DNA from: a virus
DNA length: 64,000 bases
Reading direction: 5' to 3' (one strand)
Virus genome (UHGV): UHGV-1373362
Shown piece after piece: positions 4,415-48,016 of the stretch. The notes beneath the pieces were generated by a model, which was given only the letters and a program-made list of their open reading frames with translations, had not been told where the DNA came from and searched no databases. Numbering within the stretch: position 1 is the stretch's first letter; each line of letters opens with the position of its first letter. Made by a program: the position numbers and the translations under genes.

Positions 4415-4851
4415 TAATACTGTTTACCTTGATTAGTAAGTTCTGTTATTCTATCTCTATGAACAGGGTCAAGATATACCAATTTTTGCCTCATAACTCC
4501 CTTAGATTGTAAGTCTAGTACCATTTGATATGCAGTAAACTCTGATGCTAAGAAATCCACGTCTCTCCATTTACCATTACGTCTAGCAGCAGAGAACACA
4601 TCTCTATTAAATCTATTCATACGAAGCTCAGACTTCCTACTCTTGGTTGGGAGTACAAACGTAGCATTATTTTCTATTATATCTTCTATAACCATATTAA
4701 GAGCACTCTTGAAGATTTTCTTAGCAATTACCTCCTTGTGCCTATTACCTATCATTTCCTCACATGCCTTAGCTGTTAGTTTCATTTTCTTAGTAGGAAA
4801 TGAAATAAAAATCTCATCTATATTCATGGCATGTCCTAAAGCATAATTCAT
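4411..4851 (-). CDS. Hypothetical protein, 146 aa.
   Basis: An ORF in the minus-strand tiling with a 4-nt overlap onto the next gene. Confidence 0.5.
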   Translation of the reverse strand: MNYALGHAMNIDEIFISFPTKKMKLTAKACEEMIGNRHKEVIAKKIFKSALNMVIEDIIENNATFVLPTKSRKSELRMNRFNRDVFSAARRNGKWRDVDFLASEFTAYQMVLDLQSKGVMRQKLVYLDPVHRDRITELTNQGKQYY

Positions 4852-5541
4852 TTACTTACCAAATTTCCAGGATTTATTAAATAATTTCCTATTCCAGCTA
4901 GTTTTAGCGTCCAGGATTTCATTCATCTCATTTTGATTAATATACTTTGGAACTCTAGCTGCATCACATAGTCTATACCATCTTTGTTCCATTAATTGGG
5001 CTTCTTGTAGCATCTGTTGGTTATGTTTACTCCAGCCTTCCTCAAACCTTTTGGTATAAGCGCAATAGCATGCTATAGCATCCTTCTCCTTTTCATTAAG
5101 ATAGGGTAAACCATCTTCATCAACCATGATTCCTTTATACAAGATATTTATATGCCCATAGTCTTTATCAAAATAAAGAGTATCATTCACTTGTTCGAAC
5201 TTGGCAATCTTACCACTCATATATAAAGGATTAGAAAACAGTTTCCTACCCTCGATGTAATTCTCTATAAATTGTGATTGGTAATCCCCATTAACTGTAT
5301 CATTTGATGTATATTTCCAATCCTCCCAATCATAGGTCACTAACTCAACTAGATCACAGTTACATGGAAGTTCTACAGATAATGTAGCACAATCAATTTT
5401 ACATCTAAATCTATAAAGTTTAGTTTGCCTATTACCTATTTTATTCCAGGCAATTAAGCCAATCTCTTCAAACTCTTCTGGAGTCATTTCTGTTTTATAT
5501 AACAAGTGCATTTGTGCATATGCAGATTCAAAGTTCTCCAT
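4852..5541 (-). CDS. Hypothetical Cys-containing protein, 229 aa.
   Basis: An ORF in the tiling with adjacent start and stop coupling. Confidence 0.55.
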   Translation of the reverse strand: MENFESAYAQMHLLYKTEMTPEEFEEIGLIAWNKIGNRQTKLYRFRCKIDCATLSVELPCNCDLVELVTYDWEDWKYTSNDTVNGDYQSQFIENYIEGRKLFSNPLYMSGKIAKFEQVNDTLYFDKDYGHINILYKGIMVDEDGLPYLNEKEKDAIACYCAYTKRFEEGWSKHNQQMLQEAQLMEQRWYRLCDAARVPKYINQNEMNEILDAKTSWNRKLFNKSWKFGK

Positions 5542-42402: not shown

Positions 42403-43171
42403 CTCCTATAGTATCCTTATCAATCATAACATCCTTACAAATACCCCCACATTGAGTAATATCTTCTAATACTCTCTGGGCTTCATAATATTGTTTTAAC
42501 TCGATAAGGTACTTAATAACATTAATTGCCATCCAAATAATATCTCTATTGTATATCAGATTCTTGACATCATCAACCCTGTTTCTACATCTTCCAGGTA
42601 GATCAGTTAGTAGATTTTTACACAACCTATAGAAGCATTCATTAATGTGACATACACAGAATGTGTTCTTATCTCCCCTAATAATTGTAGTTGTCTTATC
42701 AGTGATAGACGCAGGAGGTAATGCATTTACAGCTAGAACCTCTTCTATTGTAACATCAACAGACTCACTATTCAAATATTTCTTAAACGTTTGGGTGACT
42801 GCATCATAATAGTACACAGAATTATATGCAGTCAATGCAGTTGGATCTCTATCCAATACGTAAGTTAACCATTCCTGAGTTGGGATTATAATATGAGAAA
42901 CTTCATATAATCCGTCAATTGGCAACTCAATGTCAGACTCATCTATACAGTCTATAGAGTGTTCTACAATCTCATAATCTTGAAGTGTTTCATCACCTGA
43001 AGATTTTATACTTGTTATAACATTAAGAGTAATAGTTTGGGAATATGCATAGTTACGAGTACTAACAATAATTTCACCGTCCTCACTTAGATACTCATCA
43101 TTATCCTTCTCTAACCCTGTTACTGTAATACCACAAGTACCCTTTTTACAGATTTTAAATATAGAATCCAT
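42380..43171 (-). CDS. Hypothetical protein, 263 aa, with a Cys-rich C-terminus.
   Basis: An ORF whose C-terminus reads CGGICKDVMIDKDTIGGGCGCNR. Confidence 0.5.
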   Translation of the reverse strand: MDSIFKICKKGTCGITVTGLEKDNDEYLSEDGEIIVSTRNYAYSQTITLNVITSIKSSGDETLQDYEIVEHSIDCIDESDIELPIDGLYEVSHIIIPTQEWLTYVLDRDPTALTAYNSVYYYDAVTQTFKKYLNSESVDVTIEEVLAVNALPPASITDKTTTIIRGDKNTFCVCHINECFYRLCKNLLTDLPGRCRNRVDDVKNLIYNRDIIWMAINVIKYLIELKQYYEAQRVLEDITQCGGICKDVMIDKDTIGGGCGCNR

Positions 43172-43998
43172 TACTCAATTACAGTTACATATATTCCTAC
43201 CAAATCTTTTAGTGGGCTATAAACAGCTTGCCCCGAGTCTCTAGAGCACATGTATAACACCCCTTCCTGAGTATAATACTTACCAAGCTCTAGTTCCATA
43301 TTATTATTATATGGGATTGGATCTTCTCTAGTTCCAGCATGGGATTCACTAATTTCTTCATATAAAGCTGCTGTAGAAATACCTGGAGCTTGGTTTTCTA
43401 ATACCAAACTAATGTCCTGCTTTACCTTGTATAAGCATCCTTTATATGTTACTTTGTCTCCACTAGTTAGAGATCCTCCTATACAGCTCACCCATGTTGG
43501 ATACAAGGACTTACATGCCAAGGATTGTTCATCCGTAAGTGTAGCTGTTGTAACTAAAACTTTTAATAGATTAGCTATATCGTTTTGGGTTGGAAGTAAT
43601 TCTCCATTCATTTCAGGATCTACAATTCCAAAATCTTTTTTAACCTCAGATTTTATTATAGATACTAATCCCACGTACTCACGGTATTCAGAGCATATAT
43701 TAGAATCTTCTATAACCCCCATCTGATATGAATTATATTTATTCATTAATGCTAACTCTTCCTCAGCAGTTATATATTCTCGTATAATAGCTTGGATACA
43801 GGTATTACATTCAGGAACACCTCTTAGATGCACTTGTATATAGTTCCACCTAGTCTCCTCAGTTGATTCCCCAGATTCTATATCACTTGTTGTAACTACT
43901 CTGGATTTTATGTCATAATTATAGTAATATGTACCATTACCTAGCTTCTCTATTGTATTAGGCTGTACATTCATTTCTATTCTTCTTGGTTCTAACAT
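43171..43998 (-). CDS. Hypothetical protein, 275 aa.
   Basis: An ORF whose start overlaps the RT 3' end by 41 nt. An internal ATG at 43974 (residues MNVQPN) is an alternative start. Confidence 0.5.
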   Translation of the reverse strand: MLEPRRIEMNVQPNTIEKLGNGTYYYNYDIKSRVVTTSDIESGESTEETRWNYIQVHLRGVPECNTCIQAIIREYITAEEELALMNKYNSYQMGVIEDSNICSEYREYVGLVSIIKSEVKKDFGIVDPEMNGELLPTQNDIANLLKVLVTTATLTDEQSLACKSLYPTWVSCIGGSLTSGDKVTYKGCLYKVKQDISLVLENQAPGISTAALYEEISESHAGTREDPIPYNNNMELELGKYYTQEGVLYMCSRDSGQAVYSPLKDLVGIYVTVIE

Positions 43999-45193
43999 AC
44001 GGTTGTATTTTAAAATTCACAGGTAAAGAGTATCTACTAAGAGAGTATAGTAACTCTGAATTACGACTCTCGAAATAGTATGACTTCTTATTGTAAACAA
44101 AGTTAATTCTAAAACACTTACTATAATTAACCACATCCACAACGTGTACATACTTGTTGTAAAATCTAGAAATTGTAGTCTTCTTTCCATCCCAATTAGA
44201 GAAGTGCAATCCTGTCTCCTTTTGGATTTTACATAGTAAATTCTTAGAGTTACAGAACTTTAACCATCCAAAGTAAGACTGCATTCTCTTACGTAATTCG
44301 TCTTTACTTATTAATTTCCTTTTATATTTGTTTATTAATTTAAACAATCTAATTTTGATTGATTTTCTTAATAACACGTGGGTATGGTAGAATCTATATC
44401 CTACAAAGTCTATTCCCCTGCTTTCTACAGGGAATATTTGATAGTTTTGTTTCAACTTTAAATTTAAGACCTCTCTTAGATATATCTTTATCGCTATTAA
44501 GACATTTCTTAAGAAATTCTTATCACTGCTGAGAATTACAATATCATCAGCACACCTGAAATAGAATTTACATTTCAGTTCTTCCTTGACCCAATGATCA
44601 AAGTAGGCAAGGTATAGATTGGCAAAGAACTGAGATAAATAGTTACCAATAGGAACCCCATCCGCAGAATAAATAATCCCAATCAGTAAAACTAATAAAC
44701 TATTATCCTTAACCTTACGCTTAATTATTTCACATAATATATCGTGGTCAATAGAGGGATAAAACTTTTTTACATCTATTTTCAGACAATAAAACGTTTC
44801 ATCCGGATATTTTCTCAAGGCAGCCCTCAAATCATGGGCTACATTATGAATACCTCTGTCCTTAATGCAGGAATAGGTCTGCTTAATAAATATTTTAGTC
44901 CAGATGGATTCCATTATATTCATGATAGCATGATGTGTTATTCGGTCTGGATAATATGGTAGCCTAAATATTAGTCTTTCTTTAGGTTCATATATTGTGA
45001 ACGTACTATATTCCGAAGTTTCATAAACCAAGTCCCTTAGTTGTTCAGAAAGTTTTTGGTTCTCCCTCTCTTTATTTCTATCATGCTTTAAAATTCCCCA
45101 TCTAACTGATTTGTGCTTTCTAGCCTTATTATCTGCTTTCTCAATGTTCTCTATATCATACACCTGTTCATGTAAATATCCTATCCTTTTCAA
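43958..45193 (-). CDS. DGR-type reverse transcriptase.
   Basis: The RT motifs are present: YCLKIDVKKFYPSIDH for motif 2, GVPIGNYLSQFFANLYL for motif 4 (carrying the DGR-specific SQ in place of the group-II intron QG), FRCADDIVIL for the xADD catalytic box, and GIDFVGYRF in the thumb. The gene lies 142 nt downstream of a template repeat whose paired variable repeat shows adenine-specific mismatches. The start codon is a TTG at 45193. Confidence 0.9.
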   Translation of the reverse strand: MKRIGYLHEQVYDIENIEKADNKARKHKSVRWGILKHDRNKERENQKLSEQLRDLVYETSEYSTFTIYEPKERLIFRLPYYPDRITHHAIMNIMESIWTKIFIKQTYSCIKDRGIHNVAHDLRAALRKYPDETFYCLKIDVKKFYPSIDHDILCEIIKRKVKDNSLLVLLIGIIYSADGVPIGNYLSQFFANLYLAYFDHWVKEELKCKFYFRCADDIVILSSDKNFLRNVLIAIKIYLREVLNLKLKQNYQIFPVESRGIDFVGYRFYHTHVLLRKSIKIRLFKLINKYKRKLISKDELRKRMQSYFGWLKFCNSKNLLCKIQKETGLHFSNWDGKKTTISRFYNKYVHVVDVVNYSKCFRINFVYNKKSYYFESRNSELLYSLSRYSLPVNFKIQPYVRTKKNRNECTA

Positions 45194-45284
45194 AGTCTTA
45201 TATATTTAATTTGGAAGCTTTCGAGATTTAACCTACTAACACCCGTTTATCCTAAATACTACTATATTTTTTGCCAAGAGGCAG

Positions 45285-45296
45285 GGATACTGTTTA
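45285..45296. repeat. Left arm of a 12-bp perfect inverted repeat that brackets the DGR template repeat.
   Basis: GGATACTGTTTA at 45285-45296 is the reverse complement of TAAACAGTATCC at 45476-45487. Wobble pairs extend the stem to about 14 bp. Confidence 0.6.
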
Positions 45297-45335
45297 GACT
45301 GAATAAGTAAAAACTATCAAAATGAAATATATAAC

Positions 45336-45439
45336 AAACCTACATTAGCATTAGAATTGCTAACTCCATTATTAGAATTGAAGTAGCTAAGACTGGCATT
45401 ACTACCATTATTAGCGTTGCTACTAACGATGAGTGTTTT
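45336..45439 (-). repeat. DGR template repeat (TR), 104 bp, lying between the target gene and the RT.
   Basis: It aligns with 45543-45646 at an offset of 207. Of 104 positions, 74 are identical, and all 30 mismatches fall where the TR has T on the plus strand, which is A on the minus coding strand. The TR is rich in AAT/AAC (Asn) codons in the VR frame. Confidence 0.9.
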
Positions 45440-45475
45440 GTAGTAATCATCCTTGTCCTACAACTAATGTAAAAG

Positions 45476-45487
45476 TAAACAGTATCC
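45476..45487. repeat. Right arm of the 12-bp inverted repeat that brackets the TR.
   Basis: It is the reverse complement of 45285-45296. Confidence 0.6.
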
Positions 45488-45520
45488 TTAATCTTTATAC
45501 CTATAAATCTAGTATTGATT

Positions 45521-47581
45521 TTATATTTTATTTATCGTTCTGAAACCCACATGAGCAGTAGAAAGGCCAACCCCAGTACTAGAATAGAAGCAGCCAAGAC
45601 CGGCAAGACCACCATCATAAGCGCCGCCACCAACGATGAGCGTCCTCAATGCTGTGCTTGATGCATTACAGTAGTGGTAGTCACACATATATGTCGTAGT
45701 AGAGCCGCCCACCTTAGATGGAATGATCTCCCCTGTTTCACCCAGGTCAAAATCAGTAGTATAACCATCTGAAGCAATCTCGATCCCAGTTACAGACATT
45801 TTACCTTTAGCTACATTATCATCGCCAAACGCTGATGTGTCAATCGTAGTGTATACATTACTAGGCTGATTTGCAGTTGTTCTTTCTATAATTATTCCAT
45901 CTAAATTAGTCCAGATGTCTCCAAATGGATTATCAAATCCTCTCCATCTTGGAACTTTAAATGTCTTAGTAGCTACTGTTGTGGATTCGTTTACCACAGT
46001 TTCAGGAATTACTAAATCCTTAACACCAGTAAAGTTACCAAACTCATTGCAATATCCACATGGAGTTATTGGGTAATTCCCATTATAACTTGTCCAGATA
46101 TCCCAATTCCATGTAGTAACACCATCTCCTAAACCACCTTGATGATAACCTTCAGCAGTTAATTCAGCGTTATATGCAGCTTGAGAGTTAAGTGTTGCAT
46201 ATTCAATAACCCAAGCCCAGTAGAATATCCATTTGTAATACTCATAGCATAATAGTTCTGAGCCTGCATTAGCAGCATAAGTTCTCATGTTAGCTCTTGT
46301 AGTGTTGGTTCTAGGTTTTCCCAGATCACTTCTAAAGGCATCTGTACTCAGGTACGTATCGTTAGCAGTTCTATTACCTCCGCCTCTGAATTGAGCAGTA
46401 GTATTAACTACAGAAACAGCCTTATTGCCAGTCTGATTTACTGTACATCTATAGGCGTCCACTAACATCTCTGGAATTTCAATCCACGTATTATCTATTT
46501 TGACGGTAGACATTCGTACCCATTTCTTTACTCCACTAATTCCAGACTTACCATAAAACTTAGGTATGTGTACTCTTATTGAACCATCAGTTCCGTCAAG
46601 TACTGAATCCTCACCTGTAATCTTCTTACTCCAATCATTAGGATTTAAGTAGTAATTAATCATTGAACCATTAGCCACGCAACCCCTATATTGAGACTGC
46701 ACTGGTAGGGATTTATGTAATAGTGTGTTTCCAATTCTAGTTAATGTGGGGTCTGCCACAGTAGTATCCCATTCTACACCATAAGAATAAATATCTTCAT
46801 ATCCAGTATAGCTAGGAGTATCCTCCCACTTAGCAGTTCCATCACCGTTATTTACTAATATCTGACCTAAAGTACCTCCTGCTGGAATGTGCTTATTACC
46901 AGCTGTAGTGGGATGTATATAGTTGTTAGCTGACTCCTCAATAGAATCCAATTTAACTTTATCTAGCATTGATAACACACCTGCGGCTTCAGTAGTAGCA
47001 GCAGGTAATGAAGTAGTTAAGTTAGGAAATTGACTACTATAATTCCTTTCCAATGTTATAGTAACTGTACCTTGTAATGGATTGTTTCTAATAGCATTTA
47101 CACCAGTTATGCCCTCTAATTTGGTTTTATGCTCTGAAGTAAAGTCATTAGTACTCAGCTCCTTTCCTTCAATTTTATCAACTTTACCTGCTAAAGAGGA
47201 TTTAATATCTGTGTCATCGTAATTCTCTAAAGAATCTAATTTAATCTTTTCCTCACTAGTTACAAATTTATGAGTATCATCTTCTACTATGATAGAGGCA
47301 GGGTGAGTATCTGGATGGGTGTAATTGTTAGCCCCCTCAGCTATGCCATCCAATTTAGATTTAAGTTCAGTAGTAAAATTCTCATCACTAAGTACTTTAC
47401 TACCTTCTTTATCAACTTTACCTGCTAGGGCATTTGTTAATTCCTCTTGAGTAATTACATCACCCTTTATGTCTGATACAGTAGTAGTTTTATTTGTCCC
47501 ATTCTGAACTATGGGAATCAGCTCGTCACCATTAAGTGATTCTGCCAGTGGCATTTGGGAAATTTTTACATCCGTAACCAT
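45521..47581 (-). CDS. DGR target protein: a fibre-like receptor-binding protein of 686 aa with a C-terminal variable region.
   Basis: The ORF has an ATG start. Its N-terminal roughly 40 aa are paralogous to the 125-aa protein at 48278-48655. It carries two copies of the LAGKVDKxxGKxLSxxxFTxExKxKLxGI repeat shared with the 946-aa fibre. The VR sits in its last 35 codons. Confidence 0.85.
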   Translation of the reverse strand: MVTDVKISQMPLAESLNGDELIPIVQNGTNKTTTVSDIKGDVITQEELTNALAGKVDKEGSKVLSDENFTTELKSKLDGIAEGANNYTHPDTHPASIIVEDDTHKFVTSEEKIKLDSLENYDDTDIKSSLAGKVDKIEGKELSTNDFTSEHKTKLEGITGVNAIRNNPLQGTVTITLERNYSSQFPNLTTSLPAATTEAAGVLSMLDKVKLDSIEESANNYIHPTTAGNKHIPAGGTLGQILVNNGDGTAKWEDTPSYTGYEDIYSYGVEWDTTVADPTLTRIGNTLLHKSLPVQSQYRGCVANGSMINYYLNPNDWSKKITGEDSVLDGTDGSIRVHIPKFYGKSGISGVKKWVRMSTVKIDNTWIEIPEMLVDAYRCTVNQTGNKAVSVVNTTAQFRGGGNRTANDTYLSTDAFRSDLGKPRTNTTRANMRTYAANAGSELLCYEYYKWIFYWAWVIEYATLNSQAAYNAELTAEGYHQGGLGDGVTTWNWDIWTSYNGNYPITPCGYCNEFGNFTGVKDLVIPETVVNESTTVATKTFKVPRWRGFDNPFGDIWTNLDGIIIERTTANQPSNVYTTIDTSAFGDDNVAKGKMSVTGIEIASDGYTTDFDLGETGEIIPSKVGGSTTTYMCDYHYCNASSTALRTLIVGGGAYDGGLAGLGCFYSSTGVGLSTAHVGFRTINKI
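45543..45646 (-). repeat. DGR variable repeat (VR), covering the last 35 or so codons of the target gene.
   Basis: It is the counterpart of the TR. All differences map to TR adenines. It encodes the C-terminal residues TLIVGGGAYDGGLAGLGCFYSSTGVGLSTAHVGF and ends about 20 nt before the stop codon. Confidence 0.9.
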
Positions 47582-47584
47582 TAC

Positions 47585-48016
47585 TCAAATAAAATTAAAT
47601 TTCCTGTTTCTGTAATCATAATCTTTAATCATAATCTTTTCACTCTCAGTTAACAGAGTGCCTAAATCTCTTATTATTAAGTTACCATCTTCAGTAAGTA
47701 TGTTTACACCAACTTCAGCAAGGATATTTCTAGTAGCATCAGTAAGATATATATCTCCATCTTCTAGTTTCCAATGGTCTATAAAGACTGAGTTATGCCC
47801 CTTCCGAATAACCTCTAAAGTGTAACTACTGCCGTCAAATCCCTTCAGTGTCACCTGACCGTTGGCATCAGTGACATACTCTTTACCTCCAAAAACTACT
47901 ATTGCCCCTATTAATGGTTCTCCAGAGTCTTTGTCTAGTATTCTAACTACAACTGATACAATTCTTTTTAAATTAGCTCTACCAATGTAGTTACCAATGC
48001 CAATATAAATTCCCAT
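47585..48016 (-). CDS. Small protein of 143 aa with a carboxypeptidase-regulatory-like or transthyretin-like beta-sandwich motif.
   Basis: The segment RILDKDSGEPLIGAIVVFGGKEYVTDANGQVTL matches the CarboxypepD_reg signature V.D..g.Pl.gA.V......tTdanG.f. Confidence 0.5.
   Translation of the reverse strand: MGIYIGIGNYIGRANLKRIVSVVVRILDKDSGEPLIGAIVVFGGKEYVTDANGQVTLKGFDGSSYTLEVIRKGHNSVFIDHWKLEDGDIYLTDATRNILAEVGVNILTEDGNLIIRDLGTLLTESEKIMIKDYDYRNRKFNFI

Follow-up and report, generated by a model that had tools for sequence, protein, structure and literature searches.

An evidently active, Avd-less diversity-generating retroelement in a large, probably Zeta-group crAss-like phage

Diversity-generating retroelements (DGRs) let phages re-randomise a presumed receptor-binding tip and are believed to be a driver of host tracking in abundant gut phages. 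We analysed a stretch of 64,000 nucleotides (the window) from the virus genome UHGV-1373362, in which a gene for a tail-fibre-like target protein, a variable repeat (VR) at its end, a template repeat (TR) and a reverse transcriptase (RT) gene follow one another on the minus strand. We hold with high confidence that these make up an active DGR that lacks Avd and is carried by a large crAss-like phage, probably of the 'Zeta' group.

The prototype is the DGR of Bordetella phage BPP-1, with the order mtd-VR, avd, TR, spacer, brt. In its RNA, as resolved by electron cryomicroscopy (cryo-EM), an 11-bp avd:Sp duplex, a short stem-loop and A-minor adenosines form the 'cPRT Stop'; beyond it lie a single-stranded 'Thumb Ring' and then an interrupted stem-loop that binds the Bordetella RT (bRT). 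The same study found comparable duplexes in 207 of 278 DGRs, its survey covering Avd-bearing elements only. Avd occurs in most DGRs and is lacking in about a quarter (PMC7290462). Avd-less cassettes of the order target gene (TG)-VR-TR-RT were first described in 2020 in crAssphage LMMB, whose type of DGR falls within RT lineage 3 of Wu et al. (PMC7290462). Zeta crAss-like phages, which have genomes of 155-190 kb and GC contents of 29-37%, carry DGRs in 18 of 43 genomes, with RTs of up to 414 aa, a GxxxSQ motif and a variable C-terminus, AVD being absent save in two genomes (PMC12386605).

The type of cassette, the absence of Avd and the occurrence in crAss-like phages are already published (2020, 2025), and the window leaves existing knowledge of DGRs and of crAss-like phages unchanged. 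Like BPP-1, it has the VR at the 3' end of the gene for a tail protein that binds, or here is presumed to bind, the receptor, and the TR upstream of the RT gene, with a spacer of 142 nt (∼140 nt in BPP-1); unlike BPP-1, where avd lies between target and TR, its target-TR interval contains no Avd gene. With crAssphage LMMB and the alpha crAss-like DGRs it shares the TG-VR-TR-RT order without avd and a 35-codon VR that ends the tail fibre gene (PMC7290462), and DNA similarity of 64-69% to the alpha crAss-like DGRs is detectable across the RT gene. It differs from crAssphage LMMB in its host phage, contigs related to the window being ∼185 kb rather than ∼97 kb, and in its target, which has 686 aa rather than 486 and another N-terminal part. 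The Zeta DGRs match it in genome size, GC content, RT length and motif, in mostly lacking AVD and in having a tail-fibre target with a variable C-terminal domain. What the window may add, as leads rather than findings, is a covariation-backed duplex enclosing the TR together with a module resembling the 'cPRT Stop' in an Avd-less DGR, an extra RT domain and an excess of G at adenines in AG context; RNA elements, a TR-enclosing duplex and population-level VR turnover are not described in the Zeta paper as far as we read it (PMC12386605). The cassette is also a clean, evidently active example from a very abundant RT family and, being compact and made of two components (the RT and ∼300 nt of RNA), a candidate on which to ask whether DGR reverse transcription can do without Avd.

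Repeats and reverse transcriptase of the cassette

Exact re-alignment of the TR (45336-45439) and the VR (45543-45646), both on the minus strand, gave two segments of 104 nt each in ungapped register at an offset of 207, with identity lost immediately beyond both boundaries. The coordinates, the gapless register and the 69 identical non-T positions proposed in an initial annotation of the window were exact. On the plus strand the TR consists of 35 T, 34 A, 18 C and 17 G; none of its 69 non-T positions differs in the VR, and the mismatches fall on 25 of the 35 T (T>C 16, T>G 5, T>A 4), T being kept at 10. The annotation's figure of 30 differing positions was a miscount. The chance that 25/25 mismatches would fall on 35 T among 104 positions is P = 2.5e-16. 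Because the target and RT genes lie on the minus strand, all 25 differences sit at TR adenines, as had been claimed.

The VR shares the frame of the 686-aa open reading frame (ORF) at 45521-47581 on the minus strand, of which it makes up codons 646-680, in agreement with its earlier description as the final 35 or so codons, and it ends 19 nt from the stop codon. The TR, described as intergenic and rich in AAT and AAC, is indeed non-coding in that it lies outside any ORF of at least 40 aa; read in the VR frame it contains 10 AAT or AAC (AAY) codons, AAT outnumbering AAC in a further difference from BPP-1. Its adenines allow ∼1e21 DNA variants and ∼3e18 peptide variants. No further copies of the VR were found by a repeat search of the 64-kb window.

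The RT gene (43958-45193, minus strand; 411 aa) starts 142 nt from the TR, as annotated, at a TTG codon that is also used in relatives. Judged by its sequence and its modelled fold, the protein is an RT of the DGR clade. It matches Pfam RVT_1 (5.9e-15) and PHROG 1423 'reverse transcriptase' (3.3e-110), and the motif 4 (IGxxxSQ) and xADD box reported earlier are present as IGNYLSQ (aa 182-188) and the catalytic CADD (aa 214-217). The closest PDB sequence is 8ub7_A (bRT of the Bordetella phage; E 1.7e-45), and BLASTP against BPP-1 Brt gave 34% identity over aa 2-329 (1e-50). The AlphaFold2 model of the RT has a predicted local distance difference test (pLDDT) score of 86.3, and its top Foldseek match is again 8ub7_A (template-modelling score 0.91, target-normalised; root-mean-square deviation 2.4 Å; 34% identity), ranked above group II intron, retron and defence RTs. 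The core homologous to bRT spans aa 1-329. Beyond it the window RT extends ∼80 residues past the end of bRT as a confidently modelled, beta-rich and basic domain (aa ∼330-400; 43958-44206, minus strand; isoelectric point 9.8) that bRT does not have. The family is large, with up to 2,690 sequences in single 90% clusters, and a 414-aa RT labelled 'MAG TPA Caudoviricetes sp.' is 78% identical to that of the window.

An RT of group II intron, retron or defence type, beside repeats that arose as a diverged duplication or a gene-conversion tract, would be a different kind of locus altogether. Such an origin gains something from the NCBIfam results, which are sub-threshold matches only (to group II intron RT, Drt3a and retron RT), and from Pfam, which shows the generic RVT_1 alone. 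We give it next to no weight, however: the nearest solved structure, by both sequence and fold, is a DGR RT, the DGR-type IGxxxSQ motif is present, an Rfam scan detected no intron or retron RNA families, and the strictly adenine-restricted pattern, seen again independently in dozens of genomes, has no explanation other than mutagenic retrohoming. The DGR interpretation of the initial annotation is thus supported by an RT of the DGR clade, a non-coding TR, a C-terminal VR with adenine-only differences and the order target-VR-TR-RT. Its description of the cassette as 'complete' and 'canonical' says too much, in that no Avd was found in the 28 window ORFs scanned and there is no recognisable GC-rich initiation of mutagenic homing (IMH) site or downstream hairpin of the kind seen in the Bordetella prototype.

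At its 3' end the RT gene overlaps the next gene (43171-43998, 275 aa) by 41 nt (43958-43998). This gene matches only PHROGs of unknown function, and in a close relative of the window (L082) a 275-aa gene is likewise called at the same place, overlapping the RT 3' end.

Diversification of the variable repeat among relatives

L082 and the window, compared over 5.1 kb (99.2% identity), have the same TR and differ at 15 positions of the VR and at 28 others; a second relative, L083, also has the same TR, and its VR differs at 16 positions. Each of the 31 VR differences in these two genomes is at a TR adenine. The exact target protein of the window is also present on a contig of 185,332 nt, and its 90% cluster has 20 members. 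Thirteen target proteins of the same length from this cluster carry 13 distinct VR peptides. The VR, with its 35 codons, accounts for 17 variable residues and the remaining 651 codons for 13 (mostly singletons), and every variable VR codon among them holds a TR adenine. Because none of these 13 same-species proteins shares its VR with another, VR turnover must be much faster than background divergence.

The same pattern extends to a set of 80 related viral contigs whose RTs are 70-85% identical. At least 58 of them have the VR-TR-spacer-RT layout with adenine-only mismatches, and in related lineages one unchanged TR is common to up to 8 genomes, all of whose VRs differ. Across 50 distinct VRs, ∼3300 comparisons at non-adenine positions between 5 and 104 yielded a single mismatch. 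As far as assemblies show, the cassette is evidently active at present.

The cassette might instead be a relic, a formerly diversified fibre gene that has fallen silent, in which case the VR differences of the relatives would derive from older events or from inter-strain recombination. Several points speak for this: the scan of 28 window ORFs found no Avd, alpha crAss-like phages commonly have cassettes that are fragmentary and silent (PMC7290462), non-adenine mismatches or shortened runs of adenine-only differences occur in some relatives, and the evidence for activity consists of differences between assemblies and not of within-sample reads. The RT ORF is nevertheless intact, with 99% identity to a cluster of 57 sequences, genomes with 15-16 VR differences but only ∼0.5% divergence elsewhere share one and the same TR, all 13 same-species proteins have unique VRs, and the window has accumulated zero non-adenine differences between TR and VR. 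We therefore consider a relic improbable and prefer an active element.

In the 50 distinct VRs (from related loci L003-L081) the TR adenines form two classes. Adenines of the 10 AAY codons are represented by all four bases, while those in AG context (TR positions 16, 19, 37, 46, 52, 75, 79 and 99) are replaced by G in ∼95% of VRs (of 342 cases, 326 have G, 14 A, 2 T and none C). This hints that AG context has a near-deterministic A-to-G outcome instead of a random A-to-N one, and the context effects reported for bRT fit the excess only in part. Selection for glycine cannot explain the A>G changes at TR 75 (GGA>GGG), 99 (GTA>GTG) and 6 (ACA>ACG, where the next base is C), since they are synonymous. 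Possible causes of the G excess are context-dependent misincorporation, selection at the nucleotide level or, at position 99, a fixed IMH/IMH* difference. Position 99, which is A in the TR and G in the VR of 33/33 relatives, may for its part be such a fixed difference and not a product of mutagenesis.

At several positions where sister genomes keep A, the TRs of two relatives, L034 (∼4753-4855) and L058 (∼4761-4860), have A>T or A>G changes, as in AGCGGCAACGCTTATTATGGCAGTTATT. It looks as if these TRs had received a copy of mutagenised complementary DNA (cDNA) or of VR sequence.

Predicted RNA structure and the absence of Avd

In the minimum-free-energy (MFE) fold of the minus-strand RNA, a 12-bp duplex (P1) has arms that flank the TR. 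Its 5' arm, GGAUACUGUUUA (45476-45487, minus strand), lies 36 nt upstream of the TR and its 3' arm, UAAACAGUAUCC (45285-45296, minus strand), lies in the spacer. P1 is found in 12/12 distinct arm combinations among relatives, and of the ∼188 control segments tried at each locus none pairs equally well. In an alignment of 17 lineages from which the TR interior had been removed (A3), 7 of the 12 pairs covary through compensatory double changes, and 98% of P1 cells are paired. For the four-helix structure as a whole, 0/500 shuffles reached the observed values, and slid controls were 37-59% paired. RNAalifold independently predicts P1. We rejected a further helix, between the 5' flank by P1 and the 3' end of the TR, which has 10 bp in the MFE fold and ∼8 bp in the L003 clade and, inspected by eye, is lost in other lineages.

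Directly after P1 comes a hairpin, UGCC-UCUU-GGCA (45272-45283, minus strand), whose 4 stem pairs are unchanged in 17/17 lineages. An unpaired A-run (45266-45271) and then a conserved single-stranded stretch separate it from an interrupted stem-loop (45198-45259, minus strand). This stem-loop is a candidate RT-binding element, predicted as an RNAalifold consensus with an outer stem GUAUUU/AAAUAU, an inner stem GGG-UG/CG-CUUCC (within 45213-45244) and conserved UAGUAG and CGAA internal loops; its covariation is partial (pair 221-249 is GU, GC or AU; pair 224-246 is UG or UA). The order of elements, from a duplex between upstream flank and spacer through a short hairpin, adenosines and a single strand to an interrupted stem-loop, is that of BPP-1, here predicted from sequence. 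By analogy, duplex, hairpin, A-run and stem-loop would mirror the 'cPRT Stop' and the RT-binding element of BPP-1.

A covariance model of the spacer (R2), built with this structure, has one match in the window (45188-45308; 127 bits) and also matches 5' of the RT gene in distant relatives, among them the crAss-like phage cr7_1 (70.9 bits). It has no match in BPP-1. Conversely, the BPP-1 spacer scores 104.7 bits on Rfam RF03022 (Phage_DGR), which has no match in the window. Against RT-17 (RF03020) and RT-18 (RF03021) the window spacer scores 27.3 bits each, and the best relative 31 bits. Because the gathering thresholds are 40.4 and 41.3, the element is not a member by the Rfam criterion, and it is at best a divergent relative of these families. 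It resembles them in lying just upstream of an RT gene, in a GCC-loop-GGC hairpin followed by AAAA (UGCC-UCUU-GGCA being the 5' hairpin of the sub-threshold matches) and in a UAGUAG...CGAAAG signature. Weinberg et al. (2017) speculated that such RNA motifs serve DGRs (PMC5737381).

Two further segments are invariant in the 17 lineages. One, UUAUAUAUUU (45325-45334, minus strand), stands directly 3' of the TR and was also picked up as an inverted repeat (I16); the other, AAAUAUAUAA (45198-45207, minus strand), lies 4 nt upstream of the TTG start of the RT. They are perfectly complementary, 9/10 pairs never vary, and RNAalifold favours a different partner. UUAUAUAUUU may be a region of cDNA initiation or of RT regulation, and its pairing with AAAUAUAUAA would make a pseudoknot with P1 that could link translation of the RT with folding of the RNA or indicate where the cDNA starts. 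Scans for sigma-70 promoters and intrinsic terminators gave counts at chance level.

These elements suggest how the cassette would work. An RNA of ∼45190-45490 (minus strand) would carry the TR, and the 12-bp duplex, by joining the segment upstream of the TR to the downstream spacer, would loop the TR out. The hairpin, A-run, single strand and interrupted stem-loop beside the RT start codon would presumably dock the RT, which would copy the TR into cDNA with misincorporation opposite adenines. Replacement of the VR by this mutagenised cDNA would re-randomise the last 35 codons of the tail-fibre gene, and with them the presumed receptor-binding tip, to as many as ∼3e18 peptide variants while leaving the TR intact.

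Several observations weigh against an active, Avd-less DGR. The 22 small ORFs scanned and the immediate surroundings of the cassette yielded no Avd gene, and no Avd-like Pfam match was found in 28 window ORFs (8 at or around the cassette and 20 others), the window being 64 kb of a ∼185-kb genome, and the Bordetella RT is inactive without Avd according to the BPP-1 cryo-EM study. Inspection of sequence and folding revealed none of the GC-rich IMH of BPP-1 and no hairpin 3' of the VR, and the identity of TR and VR runs just 5 nt (GGTTT) beyond the last differing adenine. The priming nucleotide and the template:primer duplex were not located; the sequence 5' of the P1 3' arm, looked over by eye, is AU-rich without conserved pairing. 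The spacer scores below the gathering threshold of every Rfam family. On the side of the target, the AlphaFold2 model of aa 247-686 (46 homologues, at least 81% identity) has a pLDDT of 26, and although hhalign aligns the protein with BPP-1 Mtd VR on VR, it does so with a probability of 0.6%, which is not significant.

RNAalifold predicts no stem-loop in the ∼40 AU-rich nt just 3' of the TR, the site of the Avd-binding stem-loop in BPP-1. One speculative account, to which we would assign a rather low probability, is that this RT family runs mutagenic reverse transcription without Avd on an RNA that keeps the termination and positioning module of Bordetella and appears to have no Avd-binding stem-loop, and that the C-terminal RT domain (aa ∼330-400) could replace Avd in bracing the RNA and the template:primer duplex.

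Target protein, host phage and neighbouring genes

The target (45521-47581, minus strand) matches PHROG 5302 'tail protein' over aa 247-682 (1.4e-87). Its last 220 aa (45521-46183) are a widespread module with the VR at its end. We found this module in 1204 representative clusters, always C-terminal, in proteins of 161-1708 aa with very different N-terminal parts, and it ends in a conserved LLVGGxAxxGxxAGLGxFxSxxxVxxxxAxVGFR. Sequence and profile searches, including one with a diverse 30-member alignment of the C-terminal module, returned no Pfam, NCBIfam or PDB relative of the target. AlphaFold3 models of related Zeta crAss-like tail fibres are reported to show a C-lectin fold (PMC12386605).

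The N-terminal third of the target (∼46900-47430; aa ∼50-225) contains diverged internal repeats with KVDKxEGKxLSxNDxT-like units. In a homologue that is 96% identical (P0002), a whole block is replaced at aa ∼165-225. Because the two proteins differ by this block replacement, their sequences suggest that the shaft of the fibre undergoes modular exchange besides DGR variation at the tip.

Genes for a portal and a tail ring-like protein are also present in the window, as are giant ORFs of 1,055-2,584 aa. The portal, a match to PHROG 6547, shares only ∼25% identity with named Crassvirales portals and 50-67% with its best matches, which are on unannotated faecal phage contigs; CrAss_Ring_2 has a weak match in the window. 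The GC content of the window is 35%, and related contigs cluster at 180-190 kb. The host is probably a large (∼185 kb) crAss-like phage of the Zeta group, a placement that follows from the fit of features and not from a tree. We had also entertained the idea that the contigs of 180-190 kb are two-fold concatemers of a ∼93-kb genome, and dropped it because Zeta crAss-like genomes have 155-190 kb. Megablast of 20 kb against a phage collection gave no match. Zeta crAss-like phages are reported to have 4-34 transfer RNAs (tRNAs) and often to use recoded stop codons. The window has no tRNA genes and its structural-gene block reads through with the standard code, so such features, if present, lie outside it. 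Just upstream of the target, a 143-aa ORF (47585-48016) shows a sub-threshold match to a carboxypeptidase-regulatory-like domain.

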